This document shows, piece by piece, positions 1,371 to 63,917 of a stretch of DNA of 64,000 nucleotides. Below the pieces are notes generated by a model that was not told the DNA's origin, did not search any database, and saw only the letters and a list, made by a program, of their open reading frames with translations. The position numbers and the translations under genes are program-made. The stretch comes from Cetorhinus maximus (Eukaryota), in NCBI RefSeq assembly GCF_964194155.1, contig NC_135901.1:30566001-30630000 (forward strand), given 5' to 3'. Numbering within the stretch: the first letter of the stretch is position 1; the number at the start of each line of letters is the position of its first letter.

Positions 1371-2262
1371 CAAAACTAAAAATAAGAATAAATGAACTTA
1401 GTTACAGAACCATAAATAACATGCTAAAATGTCCCCTATCACAACATTAGACGCATCTATGTTCTTTATTACTATACTGTCCAGGGGGCAGAAATCTTAT
1501 TAAATAAAATAAGGGACAGTTCAACGATGGGGCTGGGGGAGGGTGTTGGTGGGATGCTGGTGACCATGAGAGAGGGTTGAGGGCGGGTGTCTGTGTTTCA
1601 ATATGAGAGGGGGTGGGGAAAAGGGGTCTTCAGACAATAATAGTGGGAGTGATGGAGTTTAAAATCAACTAAAACTTACAACTTATCTTGTTCAGTCACA
1701 ACATCATCATCTCTCTGCTGGCCAATTCACTCACTTACCATCCCACTCGAATCACTCAGACTCGCCCTGGAGACTCCTGGGATCAGTTTCCCACAGGCTG
1801 TCCTAGAAATGCAGGACAAAAGGCAAATTAAGGAGCAATCCCTTAAAATACAGGACAGTAAATCACCCGGAAATAGTCCCCTTAAATGTCAGCCATCTCT
1901 TGGGGAAACCACCCCTTTAATTGTGAACATTAGGAAAGAAACCATCCTTTTAGCCAGACAAATAAATGTGTCAAACTGAGGGAGCAAAGGATGTCAATGT
2001 CTTTAAGAGAGAGAGAGAGACCTGGGCCAACCTTTCCAGAGTCTGCACCCTCCCTGGATTCACTTCCTTTCCCTTCAGTTCCTGCAAGTCAACAATTTGC
2101 CCCCAGAATGAGAAAAGAAATGGAAAGGGGGAAACATTGATTTCCTCACAGCTGTTGCCCAGAGGAGGAAGTTTTAGTCTGAAGCTCATTATCCAACTTC
2201 CGCATTGTGACGTCCTGAATCAGCCAATAGGAATCACTCTGCTCCGCGGTGACGTCCTCGGG

Positions 2263-2379: not shown

Positions 2380-2703
2380 TGCAGGCCAGGCGCGCGGACA
2401 CGGGAGCCCCGCCCCCACCCATTGTTCCCCCTCCCTCCACCTCCTCCTCCTCCCCTCCTCCTCGAGCCCAAGGTTTCCAGGCAACCGGCTCCGGCCAGAG
2501 CGAGAAGCCACTCGGGAGACGGGAAGCTGCGCATGTGCGGGGGAACCCGCTCCTTCCCTTCAGGCTGAGGGACTGACCAATGGGGAAACTTGGAGGACCG
2601 GAAGGACTCCGGTCCTCCAGGCAATCAGAGCGCGGGCTTTGTGTGAATGAAGATTGAACTTCACACAGACTAAAACTTCCTCCTGTGTTCAACATCTGTG
2701 AGT
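2380..2703 (+). promoter_or_regulatory. ZNF cassette promoter and exon 1 (gene 1)
   Basis: CpG-rich; GC box, TGCGCATG (NRF1-like), CCAAT, ACCGGAAG (ETS). Donor CATCT|GTGAGT at 2698 pairs with acceptor ttttacag ending at 3660. Confidence 0.7.
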
Positions 2704-3029
2704 AAAACACTTTCTTTTCTCCGCCTTTCCATTTCTTTTTTAGTCTTGTAATAAAGTGCTGTAGCTACATTATATATTTCCAGTCATAGAGTCATTATGG
2801 CACAAAAGGACTCCATTCAGCAAATCGAGTCTGTGCCAACTCTCTGGAGAGCAATCCAGTCAGTCTCATTCACCCTCAGTATCTTCATTCTCTCTCCCAG
2901 AAGTTTCCTTCAAGTGCCCATCCAACTTCACTTTTAAATGATTGATCTTCTCTGCTTCCACCACCCCTTAGGCAGCAAGTTCCAGGTCATTACTGCGCGC
3001 TGTCTACATTTTCATTATGTTCTTTCACA

Positions 3030-3300
3030 GGGTCTGGGTGTCACTGGTTAGGCCAGCATTTTAAATGCCCATCCCTAATTGCCCTTGAGAAGGTGGTGTT
3101 GAGCGATCTTATTGAACCGCTGCAGTCCATGTGGTGGAGGTACAGCCACATTGCTTTTAGGGAAGAATGTCGAGGATTTTGACCCAACAACAGAGAAGGA
3201 CCAGCCGATATCTTTCCAAGTCAGTATGGTGAGTGGCTTGGAGGGGAACCTGCAAGTGGTGGTGGTGTTCCCATGCATCTGCTGCCCTTGTCCTACTCGG
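3030..3300 (-). mobile_element. LINE (L2/CR1 group) 3' end fragment
   Basis: Same tail (caccaccttctcaagggcaattagggatgggca) recurs at 19270-19580, 46442-46556 and 48695-48875. Confidence 0.7.
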
Positions 3301-4017
3301 AGGTAAATAAAGTTCTTCTTCACATTCCCCTTGTATCTTAAGCAAGTGATACAGTGCAGTATATGACACATTTTTCATGCTTTAAAATAGACACATATGT
3401 GGTCAACCACCTGCTTGAAGATTTTCAGGTCTCTGTGCCCTGGAGAGGAAGCGGTGAGCATGGATCTGTCAATCAGCATGAACCAGGAGAATTGGGAGGG
3501 TGTATATTAGGTAAAGCAGAGTGAGAATGGAGGGACAGTGTGTGGGACAAAGATTCACACCTTTTGGGGGGTGACAGAAGAAAGAATGTTCCACATGAAT
3601 TAGAATTCTCAGTTCTAAAATGTTATGATGTACTGATTTTTTACAAACTCTTTTTTACAGGATATCAGAAGGGGAGGATTTTCAGACAAAAATCTCAAAA
3701 CAAACATCATGTCAAGATCTGACAGTGTCGCTTGATTCATTGGAATGCGAATACTCTCAAGCTTTGAATCTGGAAGTAGAAATGTTTATCTGTTCTGTCT
3801 GCTTCAAAATATTTTAAATGTTATTTTGACTGGAAAAGCACCGAGACACACATACACCTAAGTGAGAATCTTACAGTGCACTGACTGTGGAAAGAGCTCT
3901 AATCAGTTAAAAAGCCTGAAAAAACATCACAGTGAACAGACACTGTACAAGTATTCCATGTGTGTTCGAGGCTTCAACTGATTGTCAAACCTTGAGATTC
4001 ACAAGGACAACCGCACG

Positions 4018-4524
4018 ATGGAGAAACCGTGGAAATGTGGAGACTGTGGGAAGCGATACCGATTCCCGTCTGAACTGGAAATTCATCATCGCATTCACAC
4101 TGGGGAGAGGCCTTTCACCTGCTCTGAATGTGGAAAGGGATTCACTGGGTCATCCCACCTGCTGACACACCAGCGGGTTCACACCGGGGAGAGACCATTC
4201 ACCTGTTCTGAGTGTGGGAAGGGATTCACTCAGTCACCCAACCTACTGACACACCAGCGAATTCACACTGGGGAGAGGCCGTTCACCTGTTCTGTGTGTG
4301 GGAACAAATTCAGTCAGTTATCCAGCCTGCAGACACACCAGCGAGTTCACACTGGGGAGAGGCCGTTCACCTGCTCTGAGTGTGGGAAAGGATTCACTCA
4401 GTTATCCAGCCTGCAGAAACACCAGAGAATTCACACTGGGGAGGGGCCATTCACCTGCTCTGTGTGTGGGAAGGGATTTGTTCATTTATCCAGCCTGCGG
4501 AGACACAAGCGAGTTCACGAGTGA
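4018..4524 (+). CDS. C2H2 zinc-finger protein, 6 fingers, no effector domain (gene 1)
   Basis: [10 protein letters not shown] start, six CxxC-x12-HxxxH units with TGERPF linkers, stop, conserved 3' UTR and AATAAA at ~4779. Confidence 0.85.
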
Positions 4525-11673: not shown

Positions 11674-12348
11674 TCACTTGTGAACTCGCTGGTGTTTCAG
11701 CAGGTGTGGTGACTGAGTGAATCCCTTCCCACACATGGAGCAGATGAACGGCTTCTCCCCAGAGTGAATTCGTTGGTGTGTGAGGAGGTCAGATGAATCA
11801 CCGAACCCCTTCTGGCACTCAGAGCAGGTGAATGGCTTCTCTCCAGTATGAACTCACTGATGTTGCAGCAGGTGGGATAATTGAGTAAATCCCTTCCCAC
11901 ACTCGCAGCAGGTGAATGGCCTCTTCCCGGTGTGAACTCGCTGGTGTGTCCCCAGGTTGGATGCCGTGCTAAATCTCATCACACAGCGAGAACAGCTGAA
12001 TGGTCTTTCCTCAGTGTGAATGCACTGGTGGACCCTCAGAACTGCAGCACTTTTGAAGCCACTGCCACAGTCAGAGCATTTAAAGGGTCTCTCATTGGTG
12101 TGAGTGACATGGTGTCTCCGAAGGATGGATGACTGAGTGAATCGCTTCCCACACACAGACCAGGTAAATGGTCTCTCTCCGGTGTGAACTCGCTTGTGTG
12201 ACCGCTGGGTGTATAAATCTCTGCATCCCTTCTCACACACAAAGCAGGTGAATGGCCTCTCCCCAGTGTGACTGCGTCGATGAATCTCCAGCTTCGATGG
12301 GGTTTTGAATCCCATCCCACAGTCCCCACATTCCTAGGGTTTCTCCAT
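11674..12348 (-). pseudogene. C2H2 ZNF gene 2, 8 finger units, disrupted
   Basis: Starts MEKP*ECGDC (TAG at codon 5). A second in-frame TGA at 11854-11856 is followed by two more fingers ending HQRVHK*, then the conserved 3' UTR. Acceptor at 12711. Confidence 0.85.
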
Positions 12349-13639
12349 GATGTGGATGCCCTTGTGTCTTCCCAGGTCCGACGGTCAGTTGAACCCTTGT
12401 CCTCACACAGAACATATATGATGTCTCTCCTCACTGTGAATGGTGTGATGTTTTTTCAACTATAACTGGTTAAAGCTCTTTCGACAGTCAGTGCACTGGA
12501 ACACTTTCACTCGGGTGTGTGTGTGTCTTGCTGCTGTTCCAGTCACACGGATCTTTAGTACCTTTTGAAGCAGACAGAACAGGGAAACATTTCTCCTTCC
12601 ACATTGAAAAGCCAATGATATTCAGGTCCTGGTAAATCAAGTGACTCTGTCAGATTTGACATGCAATTTGGGTTGTGACTTCTGTCTGCAATTCCTCCCC
12701 TTCTAGTATCCTGTAAAAGGAGTTTACAAATAGCATCAATGTAAGTACAGTTTAGAAATTCAGAACAGAGAAGTCTAGTTTCAGTGTATCATTCCTTCCT
12801 TTCTATTCCCCCAAAGTCCATTCCAGACACATTCTCCCCATTCTCACTCAGCTGTACCGAATATACACCCTCCCAATTCTCCAGAAGGAGCGATCAATGC
12901 TGGTCAACAGATCCATGGTCACTGCTTCATGTCGTGGACACAGATATGAAAATGTTCATGCAGGCTGTAAATATGGAGTGAGATGTGAGGATGAACTTTG
13001 TTTCGGAAGCGACTAGTCATGACCTGGAACTCGCTGCCTGGGCGGGTGGAGGTAGCAGAGGTGATCAATGATTTCAAATTGAAATTGGACAGGTACTTGA
13101 AGGGAATAAACTTGCAGAGGAATGGGGATAGAGGGGGAATGGGACTGACTGGATTGCTGCACAGAGAATCGGCATGGACTCAAGTTGCCAAATGGACTCC
13201 TTCTAAGCTGTAATGACTCTATGACAGGAAATATAAAACGTAGCTACAGTACTATATTACAAGACTATAAATAATATCAATGTACTTTATTACAGAATGA
13301 TAATATATCTAGTATGTACCATATAACGACACAAGACATATCTCTGTCCTTTTATTAATTTATTGTCCCTTTAAATGTCAGCCATCTCCTGGGGAAACCA
13401 TCCCTTTAATTGTGAACATTAGGAAAGAGACCATCCTTTTAGCCAGACAAATAAATATGTCAAGCTGAGGGAGCAAAGGATGTCAATGTCTTTAAGAGAG
13501 AGAGAGAGAGACCTGGGCCAACCTTTCCAGAGTCTGCACCCTCCCTGGATTCACTTCCTTTCCCTTCAGTTCCTGCAAATCAACAATTTCCCCCCAGAAT
13601 GAGAAAAGAAATGGAAAGGGGGAGAAAAGAAAGTGTTTT

Positions 13640-30594: not shown

Positions 30595-31575
30595 CAGAAC
30601 AAAAACAAAAATACCTGGAGAAACTCAGCAGATCTGGTAGCATCTGCGGAGACGAACACAGTTAACGTTTCGAGTCCGAATGACCCTTCAACAGAACTAA
30701 GTAAAAATAGAAGAGAGGTGAAATATAAGCTGGTTTAAATTGGGGGGTGGGGCAGGTAGAGCTGGATAGAGGGCCAGTGATAGGTGGAGATAACCAAAAG
30801 ATGTCACAGACAAAAGGACAAAGAGGTGTTGAAGGTGGTGATATTATCTAAGGAATGTGCTAATTAAGGGTAGAAAGCAGGACAAGCAAGGTACAGATAG
30901 CCCTAGAGGCTAAAAGGTAGAGATAAAACAATGGATGGAAATACATTTAAAAATAATGGAAGTAGGTGGGAAAAGAAAAATCTATATAAATTATTGGGAA
31001 GAAAAAAAAAGGGGGGGGATCGGAAAGGGGGTGGGGATGGAGGAGAGAGTTCATGATCTAAAATTGTTGAACTCAATATTCAGTCCGGAAGGCTGTAAAG
31101 TGCCTAGTCGGAAGATGAGGTGCTGTTCCTCCAGTTTGCGTTGGGCTTCACTGGAACAATGCAGCAAGCCAAGGATGGACATGTGGGCATGAGAGCAGGG
31201 TGGAGTGTTGAAATGGCAAGTGACAGGGAGGTCTGGGTAATGCTTGCGGACAGACCGAAGGTGTTTGGTCTCTCCAATGTAGAAGAAACCGCATTGGGAG
31301 CAACGAATGCAGTAGACTAAATTGAGGGAAGTGCAAGTGAAATGCTGCTTCACTTGAAAGGAGTGTTTGGGCCCTTGGACGGTGAGGAGAGGGGAAGTCA
31401 AGGGGCAGGTGTTGCACCTTCTGTGGTTGCATGTGAAGGCGCCGTTGGAGGGGGTTGAGGTATAGGGGGTGATGGAGTAGTGAACCAGGATGTCCCGGAG
31501 GGAACGATCCCTGCGGAATGCTGCCAGGGGGCGTGAAGGGAAGATGTGTTTGGTTGTGGCATCATGCTGGAGTGG
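30595..31575 (-). mobile_element. Penelope-like element 3' part (GIY-YIG endonuclease) in an intron
   Basis: ORF 31051..31401 NLVYCIRCSQCGFFYIGETK..GLNIEFNNFRS. Confidence 0.92.
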
Positions 31576-32510
31576 GATATATCTAGTGTTGTTATATGAT
31601 ACATATTAGCTATATTATCAATGGTTCTGTAATAATGTTTGTTTATTATTATTTCTAGTCTTGTTATATAGTCCTATAACTACATTATATATTGCCAGTC
31701 ATAGAGTCATTATGACACAGAAGGAGTCCACTTAGCAGCTCGAGTAGGTGCCAACTCTCTGTCGAGCAATCCAGTCAGTCCCATTCCCCCTCTATATCCC
31801 CATTCCCCTGCAAGTTTATTCCCTTCAATTTCATTCTGAAATTAATGACTCTCTCCGCTTCCACCACCCTTATAGGCAGTGAGTTCCAGGGCATCATCAC
31901 TGGCTGTCGAAATAGATTTTTCCCTCACAGCTTCATGTATCTCTAATCATGTAATGGAGTACTGTGTGTTGCACACATGTTAATGCAGTACTATTGGGTG
32001 TATGTTAGATACTGCAGAGTGAGAATTGAGAGGGAGTGTGTGGGATGGGGATGTACAGTTTTGCGGAACGAGTGCACCATAGAAACTAGAATTGTCTGTT
32101 CTGAATTTCTATCCTGTACTGGCAGTGATGACTTTTGTGATCTCCTTTTACAGGATATTAGAAGGAAAGGATCTGCAGACAGAAACATCACATCATAACA
32201 TCACATCAAGATCTGACGCAGTCACTCGATTCATGGGACTTAACTATCACTGGCCTTTGAACCTGGAAAGAGGAATATTTGTCTTTTCTGTTTGCTTCAA
32301 GAGATTTTAAATATCAGTGTGACTGGAAAAGTACCAACACACACGCCCGAGTGAGAGTGTTTCCAGTGCACTGACTGTGAAAAGAGCTTTAACCAGTTAC
32401 ACAGCCTGAAAAAATACCACACCATTCACAGTGAGGAGAGACCGTGCATGTGTTCTGTGTGAGGACAAGGCTTCAACAGATCACTGAACCTGGAGAGACT
32501 CACGGACACC

Positions 32511-33098
32511 ATGGAGAAACCATGGAAATGTGGGGACTGTGGGAAGGGATTCAAATACCCTTCTCACCTGGAAATTCATTGGCGCAGTCACAGTGGGGAG
32601 AGGCCGTTCATCTGCTCTGTTTGTGCGAAGGGATTCAGTCGGTTATCGTCCTTGGAATCACACCAGCGACTTCACACCGGGGAGAGGCCTTTCACCTGCT
32701 CTGAGTGTGGGAAGGGATTCACTGATTCGTCCAACCTGCAAACACACAAGCGAGTTCACACCGGGGAGAGGCCGTTCACCTGCTCTGTGTGTGGCAAGGG
32801 CTTCATACAGTTATCCCACCTGCAGGGACACCAGCGAGTTCACACTGGGGAGAGACCATTCACCTGCTCCGAGTGTGGTAAAGGATTCACTCATTCATCC
32901 CACCTGCAGACACACAAGCGAGTTCACACTGGGGAGAGACCGTTCTTCTGTTCTGAATGTGGGAGGCGATTCAGTCATTCATCTGATCTCCGAAAACACA
33001 AGCGTATTCACACCGGGGAGAGGCCGTTCACCTGCTCTGAGTGTGGGAAGGGATTCACTCAGTCATCCCACCTGCAGCGACACCAAGTTCACAACTGA
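32511..33098 (+). CDS. C2H2 zinc-finger protein, 6 intact plus 1 imperfect finger (gene 5)
   Basis: caccATGG start, [16 protein letters not shown] linkers, conserved 3' UTR with AATAAA at ~33367. Confidence 0.88.
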
Positions 33099-39025: not shown

Positions 39026-40713
39026 TAAAAACAAAAAGCTAAAAGCTACTGCGGATGCTGGAAATCCAAAACAAAAACAGAATTACCTGGAAAAACTCAG
39101 CAGGTCTGGCAGCATCGGTGGAGAAGAAATCAGTTAACGTTTTGAGTCTTCATGACCCTTCGGCAGAACTGAGTATAGTTAGGAGAAAGGTGAAATATAA
39201 GCTGGTCTAAGGTGGGGGGGCGGGGGGAGAGAGAAGTTGAGGGTGGGATGATTGTGGAGATAAGCAAGCAGTGATAGGAGCAGATAATCAAAAGATGTCA
39301 CAGACAAAAGGATCAAAGAGGTGTTGAAGGTGGTGATATTGTCTAAGAAAAGTGCTAATTAAGAATGGAAGACAGGATACTCAAGGTACAGCTCTAGTGG
39401 GGGTGGGGTGAAAAGACTAACAAAGTTTTCGTTGTAGATTTAAAAATAATGGAAATAGGTGGGAAAAGAAGAATCTATATAAATTATTGAAAAAAAGGGA
39501 GGGGGGAGAAACGGGGTGGGGATGGGGGGAGGGGGAGTTTAAGATCTAAAGTTGTTGAATTCAATATTCAGCCCAGAAGGCTGTAAAGTGCCTAGTCGGA
39601 AGATGAGGTGCTGTTCCTCCAGTTTGCGTTGGGCTTCACTGGAACAATGCAGCAAGCCAAGGACAGACATGTCGGCAAGAGAACAGGGTGGAGTGTTAAA
39701 ATGGCAAGCGACAGGGAGGTTTGGGTCTTTCTTGCGGACAGACCGCAGGTGTTCTGCAAAGCGGTCGCCCAGTTTGCGTTTGGTCTCTCCAATGTAGAGG
39801 AGACCGCATTGGGAGCAACGAATGCAGTAGACTAAGTTAGGGGAAATGCAAGTGAAATGCTGCTTCACTTGAAAGGAGTGTTTGGGCCCTTGGACGGTGA
39901 GGAGAGAGGAAGTGAAGGGGCAGGTGTTGCATCTTCTGCGTGGGCATGGGGAGGTGCCATAGGTGGGGGTTGAGGAGTAGGGGGTGATGGAGGAGTGGAC
40001 AAGGGTGTCCCGGAGGGAACGATCCCTACGGAATGCCGTCAGGGGGGGTGAAGGGAAGATGTGTTTGATGGTGGCATCATGCTGGAGTTGGCGGAAATGG
40101 CGGAGGATGATCCTTTGAATGCGGAGGCTGGTGGGGTGATAAGTGAGGACAAGGGGGACCCTATCATGTTTCTGGGAAGGAGGAGAAGGCATGAGGGCGG
40201 ATGCGCGGGATATGGGCCGGACACGGTGAGGGCCCTGTCAACGACCGTGGGTGGAAAACCTCGGTTAAGGAAGAAGGAGGACATGTAAGAGGAGCTGTTT
40301 TTGAAGGTAGCGTCATCAGAACAGATGCGACGGAGGCGAAGGAACTGAGAGAATGGGATGGAGTCCTTACAGGAAGCGGGGTGTGAGGAGCTGTAGTCGA
40401 GGTAGCTGTGGGAGTCGGTAGGCTTGTAATGGATATTGGTGGACAGTCTATCATCAGAAATTGAGACAGAGAGGTCAAGGAAGGGAAGAGAAGTGTCAGA
40501 GATGGACCATGTGAAAATGATGGAGGGGTGGAGATTGGAAGCAAAATTAATAAATTTTTCCAGGTCCCAACGAGAGCATGAAGCAGCACCGAAGTAATCA
40601 TCGATGTACCGGAGAAAGAGTTGTGGGAGGGGGCCGGAGTAGGACTGGAACAAGGAATGTTCCACATACCCCATAAAGAGACAGGCATAGCTGGGGCCCA
40701 TGCGGGAACCCAT
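39026..40713 (-). mobile_element. Penelope-like retroelement, 5'-truncated (RT C-terminus, GIY-YIG and 3' terminus)
   Basis: AMGSRMGPSYACLFMG..FLRYIDD..FLDL..HYKPT (to 40713) and NLVYCIRC..LLYIGET (39539..40192); one frameshift between them. Confidence 0.95.
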
Positions 40714-42230
40714 AGCAATCCAATTCCCTTTTGAACACATCGATTGAACCTGCCTGCACCACCCTCTCAGGAATTTTGTTCCAGACTCCAACCACCCTCT
40801 GGGTGAACAAGTTTCTCCTCACATCATAGTTTACACCTTTTGCCAATTGTTTTGAATCAGTGCCCTCCAGTTCTTGTGTTTTCTTGAGTGGAAACAATTT
40901 CTCACTATTTACCCTGTTCATACCCCTCTGGATCTTGAATATCTCTGTCAAGTCTCCTCTCAGCCTTCTTTTCTCCAAGGAAAACAGACCCAACTTCTCC
41001 AGTCTATCCTCATAGCTACAGTTCATTATCTCTGGAATCATTCTTGTGAATCTCCTCTGTACTCTCTCCAAAGCCTTCACATCCTTCCTCAAGTATGGTG
41101 CCCAAAACTGGATACAGTACTCCAGATGAGGCCTTACTCGTGTCTTATAGTGTCTCCTTAAAGCCTAAGATACTATATGCTTTATCAACTGCTCTCTCGA
41201 CACGCCCTGCCATCTTCAATGATGTATGTACATCTACACCGAGGTCCCTCTGTTCCTGCACCTTCTTTAGAGTTTCTGCCTTTATTTTATACTGTCTCTC
41301 CTTATCCTTCCTGTTAAAATAAATAACCTCACAGTTCTCTGCATTGAACTTCATCTGCCACATCTGCCCAATACACTAATAAGTCTATGTCCTCTTGAAG
41401 TTCAAGACAATCCTCTTCACAGTTGACAACGTTTCCAGTCTTTGTATCATCTGCAATTCTTGACAATCTTCGTTGCACCAGTCAGCCCTATTTCCCTGTT
41501 CTATCCCCATATCTCTGCACGTTTATTTCCCTCGAGTGCCCATCCAATTTCCTTATGAAACTGTTCACTGTCTCTGCTTCCACGTCCCATCCCCCTGAAA
41601 GGCAGTGAGTTCCAGGTCATTACTGCTCACTGTGTAAAAATATTCTTCCTCTCATCCCCCCTAAATCTCCTGTCCAAAACTTTAACTCTGTGTCCCCCTT
41701 GTCCCTGTACCATCAGCAAATGGGAACAGCTTTTCTTTGTCCACCTTATCTAAATCTGTCATAATCTTATACAACTCTATTAAATCCCCCCTCAACCTCC
41801 TTTGCTCCAAGGAGAACAACCCCAGCTTCTCCAACCTAACCTTGTGGTTAAAATCCCTCATCCCTGGAACCATTCTGGTAAATCTCCTCTCCACCCTCTC
41901 AGGGACCCTCACATCCTTCCTAAAGTGTGGTGACCAGAACTGGACTTAATACTCTAGTTGTGGCCTAACCAGAGCTTTATAAATGTTCAGCATAACTTCC
42001 CTGCTTTTGTTCTCAATCCCTCTATTTCTGAAGCCCAAGATCCCATGTGCTTTGCAAATTCCTCTCTCACTCTGTCCTGCCAGCTTCAATGATCTCTGCA
42101 CATGAACCCCCAGGTCCCTCTGCTCCCGCTCACTCTTTAGAACTGTGCCATGAAGTCGAGATTTCCTCTCCCTACCCCCTCTGCCAAATCACATCACCTC
42201 ACTCTTCTATGTATTAAATTCCATCTACCA
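40714..42230 (-). mobile_element. Two decayed CR1 3' portions
   Basis: ORFs 40598..41092, 41145..41363 and 41682..41912 carry ERVQRRFTRM and RRLRGDL motifs. 41680-42400 is duplicated at 48900-49600. Confidence 0.85.
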
Positions 42231-44022: not shown

Positions 44023-44865
44023 TCACTTGTGAACTCGCTGGTGTCTCAGCAGGTGGCACGACTGAGTGAATCCTTTCCCACACTCAGAGCAGCTGAATGG
44101 CCTCTCCACAGAGTGAAGTCGCTGGTGTGTCCGCAAGTTGGATGAATCATTGAATTCCTTCCCACACTCAGAGCAGGTGAATGGCCTCTCCCCAGTGTGA
44201 ACTCGCTGGTGTCTCCGGAGGTTGGATGAATTAATGAATCCCGTCCCACACATGGAGCAGGTGAACGGCCTCTCCCTAGTGTGAATGAGATGGTGAGTCA
44301 GCAGGTTTGGTAAGTGAGTGAATCCCTTCCCACACTCAGAGCAGGAGAATGGCCTCTCCCCTGTGTGAACTCGCTGGTGTCTCCGCAGGATGGATGAATC
44401 ACCGAATCCCTTCCCACACTCAGAGCAGGTGAATGGCCTCTCCCCAGCGTGAACTCGCCGGTGTCTCCACAGACTGGACGATGAACTAAACCTCTTTGCA
44501 CAGTGAGAACAGCTGAATGGTCTCTCCTCAGTGTGAATGCGCTGGTGGAACATCAGTTCCCGAGAGCTTTTGAAGCCACTCCCACAGTCAGAGCATTTAA
44601 AGGGTCTCTCATTGGTGTGAGTGACATGGTGTGTCAGCAGGCTGGATGACTGAGTGAATCGCTGCCCACACACGGTGCAGGTGAATGGCCTCTCCCCCGT
44701 GTGAACTCGCTCGTGTGTCAGCAGGGCAGATAAATCACTGAATCCCTTCCCACACACACAACAGATGAATGGCCTCTCCCCAGTGTGACTGCGTCGATGA
44801 ACCTCCAGCTTTGAAGGGAATCTGAATCCCTTCCCACAGTCCCCACATTTCCACGGTTTCTCCAT
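44023..44865 (-). CDS. C2H2 zinc-finger protein, 10 fingers (gene 6)
   Basis: Intact 280-aa [19 protein letters not shown]. Acceptor at 45212; its own exon 1 is absent. Confidence 0.85.
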
Positions 44866-45480
44866 GATGTAGGTTTTCTTGTATCTCTCCAGGCTGAATG
44901 ATCAGTTGAAGCCTTGTCCTCACACAGGACACATGTACAGTCTCTCATCACTGTGAATGCTTCAATGTTTTTTTCAACTGAGTAACTAGTTAAAGCTCTT
45001 TCCACAGTCTGGAACACTCTCACTGACGCATGTGTGTGTGTCTTCCCACTGTTCCAGTCACACTGATCATTAAAATGTTTTGAAGCAGGCAGAACAAGGA
45101 AACATTTCTCCCTGATGATATTCGGGTCCCGATAAATGAAGCCACTCTGTCAGATTTTGACATGAAATTTGGTTTGAGACTTCAGTCTGCAAATCATCCC
45201 TTTCTCATATCCTGTAAAAGGAGTTTACAAATAGCGTTACTGTCAGTACAGGATAGAAATTCAGAACATACAAGTCTAGTTTCAGTGTACCATTCCTTCC
45301 TCTCTCATTCCCCCAGTGTCTATTCCGGACACACTCTCTCCTTTCTCACTCAGCTGTACCGAATATACATCCTGCCAATTCTCCAGAAGAAGCGATTCAT
45401 GCTGATTGACAGATCCATGGTCATTGCTTCATGTCCCGGAGACAGACATGTAAATCTTGATGCAGAGTGTAAATATGGAG

Positions 45481-45669: not shown

Positions 45670-46441
45670 AAAACACTTTCTTTTCTCCCCTTTTCCATTT
45701 CTTTTCTCATTCTGGGGGCAAATTGGTGACTTGCAGGAACTGAAGGGAAAGGAAATGAATCCAGGGAGGGTCTGGAAAGGTTGGCCCAGGTCTCTCTCTC
45801 TCAAAGACATTGACATCCTTTGCTCCCTCAGCTTGATACATTTATTTATCTGGCTAAAAGGATGGTCTCTTTCCTCATGTTCACAATTAAAGGGGTGGTT
45901 TTCCCAGCAGATGGCTGACATTTAATGGGACAGTAAATTAATATAGGACAGTGATATGTCTCGTGCCGTTACATGATGCATATTTTATGTTTGTGTGGGA
46001 CAGACAATGACAGTTTTTATGGAACAACAGAGGAAAGAATGTTCCACAGTAATCAGAAATGCCTGCTCTGAATTTCTATCCTGAACTGACAGTCATGCAT
46101 TTTGTAAACTTCTTTTACAGGACATTAGAAGAGGAGGGTTTACAATCAGAAATCTCAAACCAAACGTCATGTCAAGATCTGACAGAGTCAATCGATTCAT
46201 CAGGACCTGAATTTCATCGGTAATTAAATCTAGAAGGAGAAATGTTTGTCTACTCTGTCTGCTTCAAAAGATTTGAAATGTCGGTATGACTGCAAAAGCA
46301 CCGAGACACACATGCCCGAGTGAGAGTGTTCCAGTGCACTAACTGGAAAGAGCTTTACCCAGTGACACAACTTGAAAAATCATCACACCATTCACAGCAG
46401 GGAGAGACCATACACGTGTTCTGTGTGTGGATGAGCCTTCG

Positions 46442-46556
46442 GCTTCAGCAGTTCAAGGAGGCAGCTCACCCACCACATTCTGAAGGGCAGTGAGGGATAG
46501 GCAATAAATGCTGGCCGAGGCAGCGACGCCCACATCCCATCAATGAATAAAAAAAA
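46442..46556 (+). mobile_element. LINE-tail insertion in the 5' leader of gene 7
   Basis: cagcagttcaag..caccacattctgaagggca..gggcaataaatgctggcc..aatgaataaaaaaaa interrupts fossil finger 3. Confidence 0.85.
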
Positions 46557-46593
46557 TTGTTGAACCTGGAGAGACACAAAGGGCACCCGCACC

Positions 46594-47352
46594 ATGGCGA
46601 AACCATGGAAATGTGTGAACTGTGGGAAAGGATACAGATCCCCATCTCAGCTGGAAATTCACCAACACAGTCACACCGGGGAGAGGCCATTCACCTGCTT
46701 AGAGTGTGGGAAGGGATTCACTCATTCATCCTCCCTGCTGAGACACCAGCGCATCCACACCGGGGAGAGGCCGTTCACCTGCTCTGAGTGTGGGAAGGCA
46801 TTCAGTACTTCATTTGACCTGGTGACGCACCAGCGAGTTCACACAGGGGAGAGGCCATTCACCTGCTCTGAGTGTGGGAAGGGATTCACTCAGTCATCTC
46901 ACTTGCAGACACACCAGCGAGTTCACTCTGGGGGGAGGCCAGTCATCTGCTCTGAGTGTGGGAAGGAATTCACTGGCTTGTCACACCTGCAGGTACACCA
47001 GCGAGTTCACACTGGGGACAAGCCCTTCACCTGCTCTGATTGTGGGAAGAGATTCACTCAGTTATGTAACCTGCAGACACACCAACGGGTTCACACTGGA
47101 GAAAGGCCATTCACCTGCTCTCAGTGTGGGAAGAGATTCACTCAGTCATCCACCCTGCTGACACACCAGCGGGTTCACACTGGGGAGAGACCGTTCACCT
47201 GCTTTGAGTGTGGAAATGGATTTGCTCATTCATCGCACCTGCTGAGACACCAGCGAATTCACACTGGGGAGAGGCCATTCACCTGCTCTGAGTGTGGCAA
47301 GGGATTCACTCGGTCAACCTACCTGCTGAGTCACCAGCGAGTTCACAAGTGA
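46594..47352 (+). CDS. C2H2 zinc-finger protein, 9 fingers (gene 7)
   Basis: accATGG start, intact 252-aa ORF, conserved 3' UTR with AATAAA at ~47621. Confidence 0.9.
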
Positions 47353-52814: not shown

Positions 52815-54293
52815 TTAACCGAGTGAATTCCTTCCCACATCGAGAGCGGGTGAATGGTCTTTTCCAGTGTGAACCTGTTGATGTGTCAGCAGGTGGGATA
52901 ATTGAGCGAATCCCTTCCCCCACACAGTGCAGGTGAACGGCCTCTCCCCGGTGTGAACTACCTGGTGTGCCACTAGGTGGGATGACTGAGTGAATCCCTT
53001 CCCACACACAGAGCAGGTGAATGGCTTCTCCCTGGTGTGAGTTACCTGGTGTGCCACTAGGTGCGCAGACTGAGTGAATCCCTTCCCACACACAGAGCAG
53101 GTGAACGGCCTCTCCCTGGTGTGAACTACCTTGTGTGCCACTAGGTGGGATGAATGAGTGAATCCCTTCCCACACTCGGAGCAGGTGAAAGGCCTCTCCC
53201 TGGTGTGAACTACCTGGTGTGCCACTAGATGGGATGAATGAGTGAATCCCTTCCCACACTCGGAGCAGGTGAATGGCTTCTCCCTGGTGTGAACTATCTG
53301 GTGTGCCACTAGGTGGGATGACTGAGTGAATCCCTTCCCACACTCAGAGCAGATGAATGGTTTCTCCCTGGTGTGAACTGCCTGGTGTGCCACGAGATGG
53401 GATGACTGAGTGAATCCCTTCCCACAAACAGAGCAGGTGAACGGCCTCTCCTCAGTGTGAACTACCTGGTGTGCCAGTAGGTGTGCAGACTGAGTGAATC
53501 CCTTCCCACACTCAGTGCAGGTAAACGACCTCTCCCGGGTGTGAACTGCCTGGTGTGCCACGAGGTGGGATGACTGAATGAATCCCTTCCCACACTCAGA
53601 GCAGGAGAACGGCTTCTCCCTGGTGTGAGCAACTTGGTGAGTCACTAGGTGGGATGACTGAGTGAATCCCTTCCCACAAATAGAGCAGGTGAACAGCCTC
53701 TCCCCAGTGTGAACTACCTGGTGTACCAGTAGGTGGGATGACTGAGTGAATTCTTTCCCACACTCAGAGCAGGTGAATGGCTTCTCCCTGGTGTGAACTA
53801 CCTGGTGTGCCACTAGGTGGGATGAATGAGTGAATCCTTTCCCACACACAGAGCAGGTGAGCAGCCTCTCCCTGGTGTGAGCTACCTGGTGTGCCAGTAA
53901 GTGTAATGGCTTACTGAATCCCTTCCCACACACAGAACAGGTGAGTGGCCTCTCCTTGGTGTGAGCCATCTGGTGTACCACTAGGTGGGATGACTGAGTG
54001 AATCCTTTCCCACACACACAGCAGGTGAGCAGCCTCTCCCTGGTGTGAGCGACCTGGTGTGCCACTAGGTGTGAGGAATGAGTGAATCATTTCCTCCACA
54101 CAGAGCAGTTGAGCGGCCTCTCCCTGGTGTGAGCGACCTGGTGTGCCACTAGGTGTGAGGAATGAGTGAATCCCTTCCCACACACAGGCCAGGTGAATGG
54201 CCTCTCCCTGGTGTGAATGTGTCGATGAGTTTCCAGTACAGATGTGGTTTGGAATCCCTTCCCACCATCCCCACATTTCCACAGTTTCTCCAT
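52815..54293 (-). pseudogene. C2H2 ZNF gene 8: homogenised array of ~17 units (13 intact), with an early in-frame stop
   Basis: ATG at 54293 (MEKLWKC), three damaged fingers, TGA at 54087-54089, then an open frame to 52815 with repeated (Q/H)SSHLVAH helices. The 3' end is frameshifted next to the Copia LTR. Confidence 0.8.
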
Positions 54294-55942
54294 GGTGCGT
54301 GTGCCCTTGTGTATCTCCACGTCTGTTGATCAATTGGTGCCTTGTCCACACACAGAACACATGTGTGGTGTCTCCCCTTTGTAAACGGTGTGATGTTTTT
54401 TCAGTCTGTGTAACTGCTTAAAGCTCTTTCCACAGTCAGTGCACTTGAACACTCTCACTCGGGTGTGTGTGTCTCTGTGCTTTTCCAATCACACTGATGT
54501 GTGAAACATTTTGAAGCAGTCAGAACAGACAATAATTTCTCCTTCTAGATTCAAAGGCCAATGATATTCAGGTCCTGATGAATCGAGTGACTCTGGCAGA
54601 TGTGAACGTGAATTTTGGTTTGAGAATTTCTAGCACAGACGGGTTCCGGAATCCCTTCCCACAGTCCCCACATTTCCATGGTTTCTCCATGGTGTGGGTG
54701 TCCTTATGTCTCTCTGTGTTTGACGATCAGTTGAAGCCTCATACATGCACAGAACACATGTACAGTCTCTCCCCGCTGTGAATGGTGTGATTTTTTTTTC
54801 AGGCTGTGTAACTGGTTAAAACTCTTTCCACAGTCAGTGCACTGGAACACTCTCACTCGGGTGTGTGTGTCTCGGTGCTTTTCCAATCACACCAATGTTT
54901 AGAATCTTTCCCCACAGACAGAACAGACAAACGTTTCTCCACATTCAAAGGTCAATTATGTTCGGGTCCTGATGAATTGAATGACACTGTGAGGGCTTGA
55001 TGTGATTTTTGGTTTGAGATTTCTGTCTGCAAATCCTCCCCCTCTAATATCCTGCAAAAGGAGTTTACTGTCAGTACAGGATAGAAATTCAGAATCGACA
55101 ATTCTAATTTCTATGAAACATTCTTTCCTCTCCTGTTCCCCAAAACCTGTAAATCTCTGTCCCACACATTCTCCCTCCAATCTCACTCTGCTGTACCTAA
55201 TGTACAACCTCTCAATTCTCCTGAAGGTGCAAATTCATCCCGATTGACAGATTCATGTTCAGCACTGTCAGTCCAGCAATCAGAGCTGTGAGCCATATGC
55301 ATGAACACATTACAGGAGTACAAATGTTGTAATATATAATATGCATTGCATGATTAGAGGTATGGGGGGATGCAAGAAACAACAGAATTTAGGAGTGAGT
55401 GATCATGACCTGAAATTCAGTGCGTCTGTGGATGGTGGAACTGGAGGTGATCATTGATTTCAGAATGAAATTCGATGGACACTTGATAGAAATACACTTG
55501 AAGGGGAACGGGGATATCGAAGGGGAATGGGACTGACTGGATTCTTCCACAGAGAGTCAGCATGGACTTGAGTTGCTGAATTAACTCCTTCTGTGCCGTA
55601 ATGACCCTATGACTGGAAATATATACACAGCTACAGTCCTATATTATACTATAGACATATCTCTGTCCTATATTAATTTACTGGCCCCTTAAATGTCAGC
55701 TATCTCCTGGGGAAACCCCTTTAATTGTGAACATTAGGAAAGAGACCATCTGTTTAGCCAGACAAATAAATGTGTCAAGCTGAGGGAGCAAAGGATGTCA
55801 ATGTCTTGAAGAGAGAGAGAGAGAGAGACCTGGGCCAACCTTTCCAGAGTCTGCACCCTCCCTGGATTCACTTCCTTTCCCTTCAGTTCCTGCAAGTAAA
55901 CAATTTAGAAAAGAAATGGAAAGGGTGAGAAAAGAGTGTTTT

Positions 55943-56195
55943 ACTCACAGATGTTGGACACAGGAAGAAGTTTTAATCTGTGTGAAGCTCAATCTTCATG
56001 CACACAAAGCCCGCGCTTTGATTGGCTGAAGGACAAGAGTCCTTCCGGTCCTCCAACCCTTCCCATTGGCCAGCTCCTGAGCAAGAAGGGAAGGGGCGGG
56101 CTCTCCCCTACACATGCGCAGCTTCTCCTCTCCCGAGTTCTTCGAGCGGCTTCTCGCTCTGGCTGGAGCCGTCAGCCGGTTGCCTGGAAACCTTA
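55943..56195 (-). promoter_or_regulatory. ZNF cassette promoter and exon 1 (gene 8)
   Basis: Donor 55948, acceptor 55052; TGCGCATG, GC box, two CCAAT, ACCGGAAG; homologous to 2469-2700. Confidence 0.7.
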
Positions 56196-56395: not shown

Positions 56396-57582
56396 CAGAC
56401 TAAAACTTCCTCCTGTGTCCAACATCTGTGAGTAAAACACTTTCTTTTCTCCCCCTTTCCATTTCTTTTCTCATTCTGGGGGAAATTGTTGACTTGCAGG
56501 AACTGAAGGGAAAGGAAGTGAATCCAGGGAAGGTGCAGACTCTGGAAAGGTTGGCCCAGGTCTCTCTCTCTCTCTCTTAAAGACATTGACATCCTTTGCT
56601 CTCTCAGCTTGACACATTTATTTTTCTTGCTAAAATGATGGTCTCTTTGCTAATGTTCAGAGTCCAGTGTTGTTTAATGGTTCATATTAAATGTATTATT
56701 TCTGGTTCTCTAATAAAATACATTTATTATTTTTTCTAGTCCTGTAATATATTACTGTAGCTAGGTTATTTATTTCCAGCCATAGATTCATTACGAATAC
56801 AGGAGTCCATTCAGCAACTCAAATCCCTGTCGAGTCTCTGTAGAGCAATCCAGTCAGTCCTATTCCCTTTCTATATCCCCGTTCCCTTGCATGTTTATTT
56901 CCTTCAAGTTATCACTCAATTTCTTTTTGAAATCGTTCATCATCTCTGCTTCCACCAGTCAGTGAGTTCCAGGTCTCGCAGCCTACAGGTAGATTTTCAG
57001 GACTTTGTGTCCTGCACTGGAACCACTGAGCATGGATCAATCAATCAGCATGAATTGACACCTTCAGGAGTATTGGGAGGGTGTATATTAGGTACAGCAG
57101 AGTAGGAATGGAGGGAGAGTGTGTGGGACAGATTTACAGCTTTTGGGTGAGAGAGGAAAGAATGTTCCATAGAAACTAGAATTGTCTGTTCTGAATTTCT
57201 ATAATTGACTGACGGTGATGACTTTTGTAAACTCCTTTTACAGAATATTAGAAGTTGCAGACAGAAATCTCAAATCAAACGTCACATCAGGATCTGACAG
57301 AGTCACTCAATTCATCAGGAGCTGAATATCAATGGCTTTTGAATCTAGAAGGAGAAATGTTTGTCTGTTCTGTCTGCTTCCGATGGTTTTGAAATCAGGG
57401 TTATTGGAAATGCACTGAGACAGACACATCTGAGTGAGAGTGTTCCAGTGCACTGACTGTGGAAAGAGCTTTGACCAGTTACGCAGCCTGACAAAAAATC
57501 ACGAGAGGGACTGTACACATGCTCTGTGTGTGGACTGCTCAGTTGATCATTGAATCTGGGGCGACCTAAGGACACCCACACA

Positions 57583-58445
57583 ATGGAGAAACTGTGGAAA
57601 TGACGGGACTGTGGGAAGGGATTCATATCCCCATCAAAGCTGGAAATTCATCGACGCAGCCACACTGGAGAGAGGCTGTTCACCTGCTACATGTGTGGGG
57701 AGGGATTCACTCATTCATCCCACCTGATGAGACACCAGCGAGTTCACACCGGGGAGAGACCATTCACCTGCTCTGACTGTGGGAAGGGATTCACTGAGTC
57801 GTCTCACTTGCGGATACACCAGTGAGTTCACACCAGGGAGAGTCTGTTCATCTGCACCATGTGTGGGAAACGATTCACTCAGTCATCCAGTCTGCTGAGA
57901 CACCATGTCACTCACACTGATGAGAGACCCTTTAAATGTTCGAATGTGGGAGTAGCTTCAAAAGCTGTCGGGAACTGATGTTCCACCAGCGTTTTCACAC
58001 TGAGGAGAGACCGTTCAGCTGCTCTCTCCGCACAAAGAGGTTGAGAAGTTCATCCAACCTGCAGGAACACCAGCGACTGCACACCAGGGGGAGACCATTC
58101 ACCTGCTCTGAGTGTGGGAAAGGATTCATTCAGTTGTCCAAACTGCAGATGCACCAGCGAGTTCACACTGGGTAGAGGCCATTTACCTGCTCCAATAAGA
58201 GAAGGGATTTGCTTATTTATCCAGCCTACTGAGATACCAGCGAGCTCACAGTGGGGAGAGGCCATTCACCTGCTCGGAGCATGGGAAGGTATTCACATGA
58301 TTGTCCCACCTGTTGACACATCAGCAAGTTCACACTGGAGAGAGGCCATTCACCTGCACCGTGTGTGGGCAGCGATTCCCTCAGTCATCCAGCTGACACA
58401 CCATGTCACTCACACCAATGAGAGACCCTTTAAATGTGCTGACTG
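57583..58445 (+). pseudogene. C2H2 ZNF gene 9, multiply disrupted
   Basis: MEKLWK* followed by further stops and frameshifts; promoter missing; 3' end fused to the CR1 flank module at ~58447. Confidence 0.88.
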
Positions 58446-59794: not shown

Positions 59795-62700
59795 GTCACA
59801 GAATCACAGTGCAGAAGAGGCCCTTCGGCCCATCGCATCTGCACTGACCTACCTACCTAATCCCATTTACCAGCACTTGGCCCATAGCCTTGAATGTTAT
59901 GACGTGCCAAGTGCTCATCCAGGTACTTTTTAAAGGATGTGAGGCAACCTGCCTCCACCACCCTCCCAGGCAGTGCATTCCAGACTGTCACCACCCTCTG
60001 GGTAAAAAAGTTTTTCCTCACATCCCCCCTAAACCTCCTGCCCCTCACCTTGAACTTATGCCCCCTTGTGACTGACCCTTCAACTAAGGGGAACAGCTGC
60101 TCCCTATCCACCCTGTCCATGCCCCTCATAATCTTGTACACCTCGATCAGGTCGCCCCTCAGTCTTCTCTGCTCCAGCGAAAACAACCCAAGTCTATCCA
60201 ACCTCTCTTCATAATTTAAATGTTTCATCCCAGGTAACATCCTGGTGAATCTCCTCTGCACCCCCTCCAGTGCAATCACATCCTTCCTATAATGTGGTGA
60301 CCAGAACTGCACAAGTACTCCAGCTGTGGCCTCACCTAGGTTCTATACAACTCCAACATGACCTCCCTACTTTTGTAATCTATGCCTTAATTGATAAAGG
60401 CAAGTGTCCCATATGCCTTTTTCACCATCCCACTAACATGCCCCTCTGCCTTCAGAGATCTATGGACACACACGCCAAGGTCCCTTTGTTTCTCAGAACT
60501 TCCTAGTGCCATGCTGTTCATTGAATACTTCCTTGTCAAATTACTCCTTCCAAAGTGTATCAGCTCACACTTTTCAGGGTTAAATTCCATCCGCCACTTA
60601 TCTGCCCATTTGACCATCCCATCTATATCTTCCTGTAGCTCAAGACACTCAAGCTCACTGTTAACCACCCGGCCAATCTTTGTGTCATCCGCAAACTTAA
60701 TCCTACACCCCACATAGTCATCTATGTCGTTTATATAAATGACAAATAATTGGGGACCGAGCACAGATCCCTGTGGTACGCCACTGGACACTGGCTTCCA
60801 GTCACTAAAGCATCCTTCTGTCATCACCCTCTGCCTCCTACAACTAAGCCAATTTTGAATCCACCTTATCAAATTACCCTGTATCCCATGTGCATTTGCC
60901 TTCTTTATAAGTCATGTGGGACCTTGTCAAAGGCTTTGATGAAATCCATATAAACTACATCAACTGCACTACCCTCACCGACATACCTGGTCACCTCCTC
61001 AAAAAATTCAATCAAATTTGTTAGGCATGACCTCCCTCTGACAAAGCCATGCTGACTATCCCTGATCAAACCTTACCTCTCGAAGTGGAGATAGATACTC
61101 TCCTTCAGAAATTTCTCCAATTGTTTCCTGAACACTGACGTGAGACTCACTGGCCTGCAGTTCCCTAGCTTATCTCTACAACCCTTCTTAAATAGCGGAA
61201 CCACATTAGCTGTTCTCCAGTCCTCTGGCACCTCCCCTGTGGCCAGAGAGGAATTAAAAATTTGGGTCAGGGCCCCTGCGATCTCCTCCCTTGCCTCCCT
61301 CAGCAGGCTTGGACACAAATCATCCGGACCTGGAGATTTGTCCACTTGTAAGCCTGCGAACACCTCCAATACCTTGAAAAAACTCAGCAGGTTTGGCAGC
61401 ATCGGCGGAGAAGAACAAAGTTGACATTTCGAGTCCTCATGACTCTTCAACAGAACTAAGTAAAAATAGGAGAGGGGTGAAATATAAGCTGGTTTAAGGT
61501 GGGGGGGTGGGGGGAGAGAAGTGGTGGGGTGGTGGTTGTAGAGACAAGCAAGCAGTGATAGGAGCAGATAATCAAAAGATGTCACAGACAAAAGAACAAA
61601 GAGGTGTTGAAGGTGGTGATATTATCTAAAAGAATGTGCTAATTAAGAATAGATGGCAGGACACGCAAGGTACAGATAGCTCTAGTGGAGGTGGGGTGAA
61701 ATAAGACTAAAAGGGCATAAAAGGTATAGATTTAAAAATAATGGAAATAGGTGGGAAAAGAAAAATCTATATAAATTATTGGAAAAAACAAAAGGGAGGG
61801 GGAAGAAACGGAAAGGGGGTGGGGATGGAGGAGGGAGTTCGAGATCTAAAGTTGTTGAACTCAATATTCAGTCCGGAAGGCTGTAAAGTGCCTAGTCGGA
61901 AGATGAGGTGCTGTTCCTCCAGTTTGCGTTGAGCTTCACTGGAACAATGCAGCAAGCCAAGGACAGACATGTGGGCAAGAGAGCAGGGTGGAGTGTTAAA
62001 ATGGCAAGCGACAGGGAGGTCTGGGTCATTCTTGCGGACAGACCGAAGGTGTTCTGCAAAGTGGTTGCCCAGTCTGCGTTTGGTCTCTCCACTGTAGAGG
62101 AGACCGCATTGGGAGCAACGAATGCAGTAGACTAAGTTGGGGGAAATGCAAGTGAAATGCTGCTTCACTTGAAAGGAGTGTTTGGGCCTTTGGACGGTGA
62201 GGAGAGAGGAAATGAAGGGGCAGGTGTTGCATATTTTGCGTATGCATGGGGAGGTGCCGTAGGTGGGGGTTGAGGAGTAGGGGGTGATGGAGGAGTGGAC
62301 CAGGGTGTCCCGGAGGGAACGATCCCTACGGAATGCCGTCAGGGGGGGTGAAGGGAAGATGTGTTTGATGGTGGCATCATGCTGGAGTTGGCGGAAATGA
62401 CGGAGAATGATCCTTTGAATGCGGAGGCTGGTGGGATGATAAGTGAGGATAAGGGGGACCCTATCATGTTTCTGGGAGGGAGGAGAAGGCATGAGGGCGG
62501 ATGCGCGGGAGATGGGCCGGACACGGTTGAGGGCCCTGTCAACGACCGTGGGTGGAAAACCTTGGTTAAGGAAGAAGGAGGACATGTCAGAGGAGCTGTT
62601 TTTGAAGGTAGCGTCATCAGAACAGATGCGACGGAGGCGAAGGAACTGAGAGAATGGGATGGAGTCCTTACAGGAAGCGGGGTGTGAGGAGCTGTAGTTG

Positions 62701-63917
62701 AGGTAGCTGTGGGAGTTGGTAGGCTTGTAAAGGATATTGGTGGACAGTCTATCACCAGAAATTGAGACGATTTGACCTCCTGCACCAACTCTTAAGCCAC
62801 GTATTCATCTGTGCTATTCTACTTCTGAGCTCACTAGCACGTGGCATTGGGAGTAATTCAGAGATTACAACCTGAGAGGTCTTGCTTTTTAGTCTACTAC
62901 CTAACTCCCTGAATTCTTGATGCCTCATCCCTCTTTCTACCTATGTCATTGGTACCAACATGTACCATGACCTCTGCCTTATCACCCTCCCTCTTCAGGA
63001 TGCCCTGCAGCCGTTCAGTGACATCCCGGACCCTGGCACCAGGGAGGCAACATACCATCCTGGAGTCACGTTGACGGCCACAGTAGCGCCTATCTGTTCA
63101 CCTGACTATAGAATCCCCTATTACTATTGCTCTTCCTCCCTTCCTCCCTTCCTGTACAGACAGGCTGCTTATGGTGCCAGAAACTTGGCTCTGTCCGCAC
63201 TCCCTGGAGGAACCAGCGCTCTCATCAGCCTCCAAAATGGAATACCGATTTGCGAGCAGAACCCCAGGGGACTCCTGAACTACCTGCCTATTTTTCTTGC
63301 ACTGCCTGGCGGTCACCCATTCCCTTCCTTCCTCAAGTCCCTTCATCTGCGGTGTGACCACCTCTCTAAACATGCTATCCACGATGCTCTCAGACTCGCG
63401 GATGCTCCACAGTGTCCCCAGCCGCCATTCCAGCTCTGAAACCCGAGCTTGCAGGAGCTGCAGCTGGGCACACTTCCTGCACACATGCTTGTCCCGGGCA
63501 CTGGAAATGTCCCCGGCTTCCCACATGGAGCACGAGGAGCACACCACGGCTTTGAGTGCTCCTGCCATGACTTATCCCTTTAAATTAAACCTTTTAAGTC
63601 AATTACTCTAGGGCCCTTCTTTCCTGATCCTCGTTACTGTAGAGTATACAAACTGTAAACCACAAAAAGACCTTAAACTATAAGCGATTAAAGTAGTAAA
63701 TACTTTACCCACTACTTACCAGTGGTTCCTTTCCCTTGTAGCCTCTCCTGCTGCAGCACGCTCTGAAGATTTCAGAAGTTGGATAGCAAGGAAAAAATGC
63801 AAAGAACACCTCGTCCCCTGTGCACCAAATTCCCGCTTTGCACCAAATTCTGAATACCCACTCTCGCTGTGCCCCACTTAGGATATGCTCACTCTCCTGT
63901 TCCTGTGCAAGCACACG
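59795..63917 (-). mobile_element. CR1 LINE with 5' UTR, ORF1 and RT; central part replaced by a Penelope
   Basis: ORF1 63098..63568 (VCSSCSMWE..CRKC, coiled coil, AIVIGDSIVR esterase start); RT pieces 61073-61375, 60387..60872 and 59857..60312. Empty site at ~7943. Confidence 0.92.
61376..62768 (-). mobile_element. Penelope-like element 3' part (thumb and GIY-YIG)
   Basis: ORF 61776..62585 is nearly identical to 39539..40192. Confidence 0.95.

Follow-up and report, generated by a model that had tools for sequence, protein, structure and literature searches.

Why should a zinc-finger gene carry, in front of the ATG of its open reading frame, several hundred nucleotides that still read as a linker and fingers and contain stops? 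The question is raised by the window analysed here, a 64,000-nt stretch of the Cetorhinus maximus genome (G000:C24:30566001-30630000) in which a two-exon C2H2 zinc-finger gene occurs in eight complete copies and one incomplete one. In our reading, this leader very probably once encoded protein, was broken and now evolves neutrally, while translation likely begins at the ATG that follows it.

Layout of the gene family in the window

The layout of gene 1 is given below; C1, C1920, C13 and C2452 are related genes, and the sister copies belong to a further subfamily on C24.

2640..2697 (+): exon 1, type A, 5′ end approximate; GTGAGT donor at its end (GT at 2698-2699)
2698..3660 (+): predicted intron, 963 nt, phase 2 relative to the old frame; same junction in catshark model P0102
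3661..3781 (+): remains of a linker, acidic and rich in Ser/Thr (codons 1-40); evolves neutrally among paralogs and has an open frame in C1, C1920, C13 and C2452
3782..3862 (+): dead finger 1; sole inherited upstream ATG (uATG) at 3782, TAA at 3815 (CAA in C1), TGA at 3827 (TGG in C1)
3863..3940 (+): remnant of finger 2 with approximate boundaries; gene 1 has a frameshift and a shortened finger, the family consensus an undamaged one
3941..4017 (+): dead finger 3; TGA at 3979, where C1 and 16 of 24 sister copies have CGA; the codon for its last His is replaced
4018..4524 (+): intact ORF of gene 1, 168 aa, six C2H2 fingers; ATG at the linker Gly position, A at -3 and G at +4

The acceptor of gene 1 is AG/G at 3661. 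Exon 1 contains an 8-codon ATG..TAA frame, which is out of frame, and no in-frame ATG. An earlier note on this DNA had located shared TGAs in several copies and a repeat insertion in one of them, and all of its coordinates proved correct on rechecking. Its translation of exon 1 of gene 1 has to be changed to RLNFTQ with an in-frame TGA directly before it, and the context of the TGA at 3827, which had been given differently, is MLF*LEKH (asterisk, stop).

Judged by their domains, these can be classed as ordinary tandem Krüppel-type C2H2 genes: PF00096 fingers with TGE(K/R)P-type linkers number six in gene 1, 12 in C1 and 13 in C1920. With the leader as query, 2802 first-look candidates were obtained at the DNA level, and all 40 that were scored lie on C24; protein searches found relatives from 0.4 to 64.7 Mb of C24 and on small contigs. 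The copies are clustered, with 42 strong leader matches in 264 kb, and many are dead. The further features of this family in the window are:

12346..12710 (-): paralog 2 leader; array stop after 4 codons
22288..22653 (+): paralog 3 leader; all three stops present, TGA at 22612
32154..32513 (+): paralog 4 leader; TGA at 32320, finger-3 stop now AGA
44863..45211 (-): paralog 5 leader; all three stops present
46121..46596 (+): paralog 6 leader; TGA at 46287; the finger-3 stop is the site of an inserted repeat 3′ end (~46442-46548)
54294..55051 (-): paralog 7, full leader (ATG 54690), then a second, partial leader (ATG 54296)
57244..57585 (+): paralog 8 leader; finger-1 TGA lost, array stop after 6 codons
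2109..2194 (-): type-B exon 1 belonging to a neighbour that lies head to head, upstream of the window; first exons of type B often carry an ATG in the fossil frame

Three of the eight full copies have dead arrays (ORFs of 4, 40 and 6 aa). In paralog 7 the second leader (54294-54690, minus strand) is fused into the first finger, and the long array uses the second ATG. The insertion in paralog 6, placed by the earlier note at about 46442, is indeed the 3′ end of a dispersed repeat (46442-46548, more than 40 matches in the DNA examined); by its motif it may be a CR1/L2-type LINE tail. One paralog carries the same insertion at the identical site, and the 9-finger ORF of paralog 6 is intact downstream of it.

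Several other features of the window were observed. A near-identical finger array with unusual VAHQ..HTRE linkers (52815-54086, minus strand) suggests a recent internal duplication. Retroelement ORF fragments at 31051-31605, 39539-40818 and 61776-62804 are of a kind unlike the common CR1-like pieces, and one of them ends in a possible GIY-YIG-type nuclease. Exon-1 modules stand head to head with a shared promoter at 2109-2194 (-)/2475-2742 (+) and at 55905-56190 (-)/56396-56473 (+); in some copies a repeat replaces the promoter arm directly 5′ of exon 1.

Shared stops in the leader

Leaders were collected from ~0.88 Mb of C24: dropping 69 partial matches from 176 left 107 full-length leaders, and removal of 7 near-identical ones left a non-redundant set of 100. 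The leader forms the 364-nt start of exon 2 and comprises a 40-codon linker and three fingers. Between acceptor and ATG, the majority sequence of the 107 leaders keeps to a single frame for 121 codons; it contains exactly three stops and is free of frameshifts, which is much more order than chance would give. Its elements are acidic linker, finger 1 (TAA at codon 52, TGA at codon 56), intact finger 2, finger 3 (TGA at codon 109, final His replaced) and MEKPWKC. The finger-1 TGA is present in 91 of 107 copies, the finger-3 TGA in 89 of 105, the TAA in 84 of 105 and the ATG in 102 of 107. At codon 109 a further 11 copies have TAA, two of which are misalignments at the repeat insertion. Among the 100 non-redundant copies, 66 carry all three stops, 28 two and 6 one; leader lengths are spread over the three remainders modulo 3 (29/33/38), and the ORF behind the leader contains no finger in 11 copies. 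An open frame through the leader, which according to the earlier note would speak against its reading if most paralogs had it, was found in none of the 100.

The earlier description of a fossil coding leader with shared stops is thereby borne out, though not for every copy as it had been put: among the eight full window copies, the codon-52 stop and the finger-1 TGA are present in seven each and the finger-3 TGA in six. Of the three fingers that it had called dead, fingers 1 and 3 are; finger 2 has no shared lesion and is intact in the consensus.

Two relatives are open through the same region

An uninterrupted gene of the kind that the earlier note had proposed to look for is present in the same genome. 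G000:C1:215370538 (-) and G000:C1920:51250 (+), both outside the cluster, have the same exon start and are open through the linker and all three fingers; they keep the acceptor, its phase and an open frame into their 12 and 13 fingers. When the leader was read through its stops (as X) and used for a search, C1:215370187-215370531 and C1920:51254-51601 were the only stop-free matches among the 150 best, and a search with the C1 protein agrees, C1 and C1920 again being the only stop-free loci in its top 150. Relative to C1, the family shows CAA>TAA, TGG>TGA and CGA>TGA at the three stop positions, each a single base. Where C1 reads CAC GCT GGA (His…Gly), the family has CGC ACC ATG (Arg…Met), with CAC>CGC and the linker Gly codon turned into ATG.

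We compared the coding character of these sequences. The family majority against C1 gives a dN/dS of 0.39 (p 0.001), and C1 against C1920 gives 0.12 (p 7e-14), indicating purifying selection. The constraint between C1 and C1920 is strongest in fingers 1-2 (pN 0.13 and 0.09 versus pS 0.78 and 0.72). The linker is less constrained (0.33, p 0.016; the high GC content of C1920 inflates pS). Judged by sequence comparison, the region was evidently coding before it was broken. C1 is a surviving relative and not necessarily the direct source of the family, and C1 and C1920 are candidate genes for studying the original function.

C1 has in-frame ATGs at codons 9, 37 and 41. In C1920, exon 2 contains no ATG ahead of finger 1, and the linker of this gene would therefore be translated from an upstream exon. 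No such coding exon was found for C1920, where a satellite repeat reaches the contig start, and none matching the family exon-1 profile was found within 60 kb of C1. The satellite (G000:C1920:1-51100) covers ~51 kb directly upstream of the intact, GC3-rich zinc-finger exon. Among 71, 41 and 14 candidates from word-index protein searches, which are weak for zinc-finger queries, no ortholog of C1 was found.

Inheritance of the lesions

Shared stops could also result from parallel CpG decay that hit the copies repeatedly after the expansion. The finger-3 stop does derive from CGA, and true CpG codons of the leader have reached TGA in 16-21 copies each. At these codons, however, CGA is kept in 46-67 of 104 copies, and TGA and CAA are both common and about equal, whereas codon 109 is CGA in 1 of 100 copies and CAA in none. 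As these two classes are nearly absent compared with true CpG codons, the finger-3 stop must have been inherited. The other two stops derive from TGG and CAA, which are not CpG, and for the copies sampled we give parallel decay a negligible probability.

The two TGAs and the ATG are common to proximal and distal C24 copies. In five distal copies (35.7-63.4 Mb), which share the two TGAs and the ATG, codon 52 is CAA and codon 48 is GGG, as in C1; the TAA is therefore younger than the founder. The earlier note's proposal that the founder lost its N-terminal region before the expansion thus fits the two TGAs and the ATG and fails for the TAA, which arose after the founder.

Gene models of other sharks were inspected as well. 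A profile of the linker gave 38 protein matches; 27 of them were retrieved and the origin of 20 was looked up, and the 15 with names are all from sharks. Automatic models from sawshark, smoothhound and bamboo shark begin with MEKPWKC. Sawshark P0096 and horn shark P0108, also automatic models, end at FQTSV, the site of the finger-1 TGA, and their codon 52 encodes Gln, in agreement with a TGA that is old and a TAA that came later. The automatic catshark model P0080 has retained Trp at the finger-1 TGA position and is frameshifted further on; this TGA is hence not universal in sharks.

Neutral drift of the leader

In order to compare leader and array, as the earlier note had proposed, we estimated selection with codon models. 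The leader has a dN/dS of 0.93, not different from 1 (2dlnL 2.0; off-frame controls 0.88 and 1.19), while the first live finger is constrained (0.44, 2dlnL 71). With CpG-aware rates the values are 1.00 and 0.63, and 129 new stops were seen in the leader against 127.5 expected, compared with 15 against 34.8 in the ORF; these rates were trained largely on the leader itself, so that only the contrasts count. Changes at non-CpG sites on the tree amount to 5.9 in the leader and 6.2 in the intron end. The acidic stretch gives 0.84-1.02 in the window's family and 1.02 in the sister subfamily. The leader shows no sign of present function and drifts neutrally among paralogs.

Finger 3 at first seemed to carry a coding signal (dN/dS 0.67, and 0.28 over the final 12 codons of the leader). 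We rejected this signal as a result of CpG decay and small sample size: CpG-aware values for these 12 codons are 0.91 and 0.80, within the spread of control windows (0.69-1.67). As a positive control, finger 3 of the sister subfamily gave 0.71, a weak signal (2dlnL 3.7).

A long protein might still be made if the stops were recoded by read-through, selenocysteine insertion or RNA editing. In favour of such a reading, TGA accounts for two of the shared stops, and the consensus stays in frame throughout; but a net frameshift is present in 71 of 100 copies, no copy has fewer than two stops in the frame of the ATG, and new stops at the neutral rate together with a dN/dS of about 1 leave recoding with hardly any probability.

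Predicted splicing of the leader and likely start of translation

The junction between exon 1 and the leader is predicted from sequence signals and gene models. It could be imagined that splicing removes the leader in most cases, or that transcription really begins downstream of it, which would make it an intron-like relic and not a 5′ UTR. Models of related subfamilies (P0099, P0101 and P0049) in fact use an internal donor after the linker. In contrast, the acceptor AG is kept in 95 of 100 copies, an exon 1 with a donor stands upstream of 85 of 107, and catshark model P0102 joins exon 1 to the leader's acceptor. Contigs of four presumed-RNA runs from other organisms cover every leader bin, and likewise every intron bin. 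Two listed joints skip parts of the leader, but both have non-GT-AG ends and one contig each; the joint 2697-3661 was absent among the 15 joints listed (there are 754 more, and the table was filled by arrays and repeat). We consider skipping of the leader unlikely and retain its reading as a probable untranslated part of exon 2.

The ATG behind the leader shows 4 changes on the tree, which equals the minimum among 281 leader triplets, and its context is kept in nearly all of the 100 copies (A at -3 in 98, G at +4 in 96). This conservation suggests that the proteins likely start here.

Exon 1 could be typed for 74 copies, 51 of type A and 17 of type B, and it contributes at most 19 in-frame codons. 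Type A has no in-frame ATG, so that its link to the leader is not coding; a short ATG ORF is present in 40 of 51. In type B an ATG stands in the fossil frame in 10 of 17, and 1 more has another in-frame ATG; in 10 of 17 the ATG corresponds to the start of P0102. One guess is that translation once began at the type-B ATG; the loss would then not have included a large domain. A conserved 70-codon upstream ORF (uORF) from type-B exon 1 was considered and rejected, the frame being open to finger 1 in only 1 of 17. Exon 1 and the first 70 nt of the intron (2650-2745 and paralogs) are better kept than the leader, with about nine in ten copies agreeing per site, and the first part of the intron contains a C-run and a G-run that could pair.

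Upstream ATGs

Since 99 of 100 copies have at least one uATG (mean 3.5 per copy), initiation at the main ATG should be lowered, and the fossil might be kept by selection as a uORF brake that holds the translation of thousands of zinc-finger genes low. Short ATG ORFs in most type-A first exons point the same way, as does the slower change of the three stops (7, 7 and 9 changes versus a triplet mean of 13). However, off-frame TGAs are just as steady (3-9 changes). The majority leader has a single uATG, opening an 11-codon ORF, and its 12 changes place it at the 46th percentile of the background, unlike a conserved-peptide uORF. ATGs were gained 2.0 times per one-step site versus 3.1 for CAT, and more uATGs are present in shuffles (6.2) and on the reverse strand (7.2). 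The leader is thus not uORF-rich, although it had been called so. A selected brake seems very unlikely to us; incidental damping by uATGs of a neutrally drifting relic is possible.

A sister subfamily with another start

C24 also holds a sister subfamily with the same linker and without fingers 1-2. We kept 24 of 31 copies, a sample deliberately enriched for stop-free loci: 23 have an ATG at codon 37, 16 CGA at the finger-3 stop position and 13 GGG in the linker. Its linker has stops of its own at codons 12 and 28. Most copies of the window's family have CTA or CTG at codon 37. In the sister subfamily translation apparently begins at another ATG, one that is older and lies in the same former frame. 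C13 and C2452 each carry a single gene of the sister layout whose linker is open. The fingers of C2452 match catshark P0005 and ray P0007, and no match to the N-terminus of P0005 was found upstream of it; C13 has an exon-1 ATG, which is out of frame. In a tree of finger 3 and the next finger, the 13 sampled rows of the window's family form one group (100/99). C1, C1920, C13 and C2452 fall outside the 25 C24 rows, with a separating branch of only 91/77, not starred.

Stand-alone copies of the acidic linker ending in a GTAAG donor (L091-L110, C24 35.7-63.5 Mb) were also observed; compared with models P0049 and P0101, they look like an extra untranslated exon of the sister subfamily.

Proposed history and relation to known systems

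In the history that we propose, a founder would have gained an ATG in a strong context and two TGAs, in either order, and would then have been copied many times. The TAA would have arisen later within a subclade, and indels, CpG decay and repeat insertions would have accumulated since. Ribosomes could arrive at the ATG through leaky scanning, or re-initiate there once short uORFs have been translated, and the products would be finger-only proteins beginning MEKPWKC.

N-terminal truncation by a downstream start codon, with the old coding sequence left as 5′ UTR, is a known route. The shark leader resembles it in its readable old frame, shared lesions, neutral drift and constrained new ATG. It differs in that the relic has been multiplied (2802 first-look candidates), that intact relatives exist in the same genome and that the sister subfamily apparently has its start at a different ATG in the former frame. 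The mechanism is ordinary, and nothing suggests a new one; what is added are two intact relatives and a stepwise history.

The cyprinid FiNZ-ZNF genes on zebrafish Chr 4q are hundreds of two-exon tandem C2H2 genes, defined by a conserved 28-aa domain in its own exon (PMC10547256). Both systems mass two-exon tandem C2H2 genes on one chromosome and have an acidic stretch before the fingers, but the shark stretch lies in the finger exon and is broken and drifting; the distinction is one of architecture and of constraint. The main text of PMC10547256 does not mention sharks. No description of the leader appeared among the papers that literature searches listed; the supplements of PMC10547256 hold ZNF counts and may cover sharks. 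Tetrapod KRAB clusters share birth-and-death and a last exon made of spacer and finger array (PMC11603059, PMC8455134), and according to the same papers KRAB families were lost from or not yet present in cartilaginous fishes. Unlike those clusters, the five shark proteins scanned have no KRAB match (read-through leader P0067, C1, C1920, P0005 and gene 1; the upstream exons of C1920 lie off the contig and may encode such a domain).

Both large C24 subfamilies are without fingers 1-2, one through stops and a new ATG, the other through deletion with an older ATG. A doubtful extension, suggested by the low pN of fingers 1-2 between C1 and C1920 (0.09-0.13, with synonymous sites near saturation), is that these fingers were an anchor module, binding a fixed target or partner, whose loss freed the arrays to multiply and retarget. 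If so, the single-copy C1 and C1920 would show the function which the finger-only chromosome escaped.

Several public shark gene models translate parts of the relic, which calls for caution in annotation. The broken leader would explain the absence of an N-terminal module in these shark zinc-finger proteins, and its ~360 nt may serve as a neutral clock common to a very large family, for dating the expansion and calibrating selection on the arrays.
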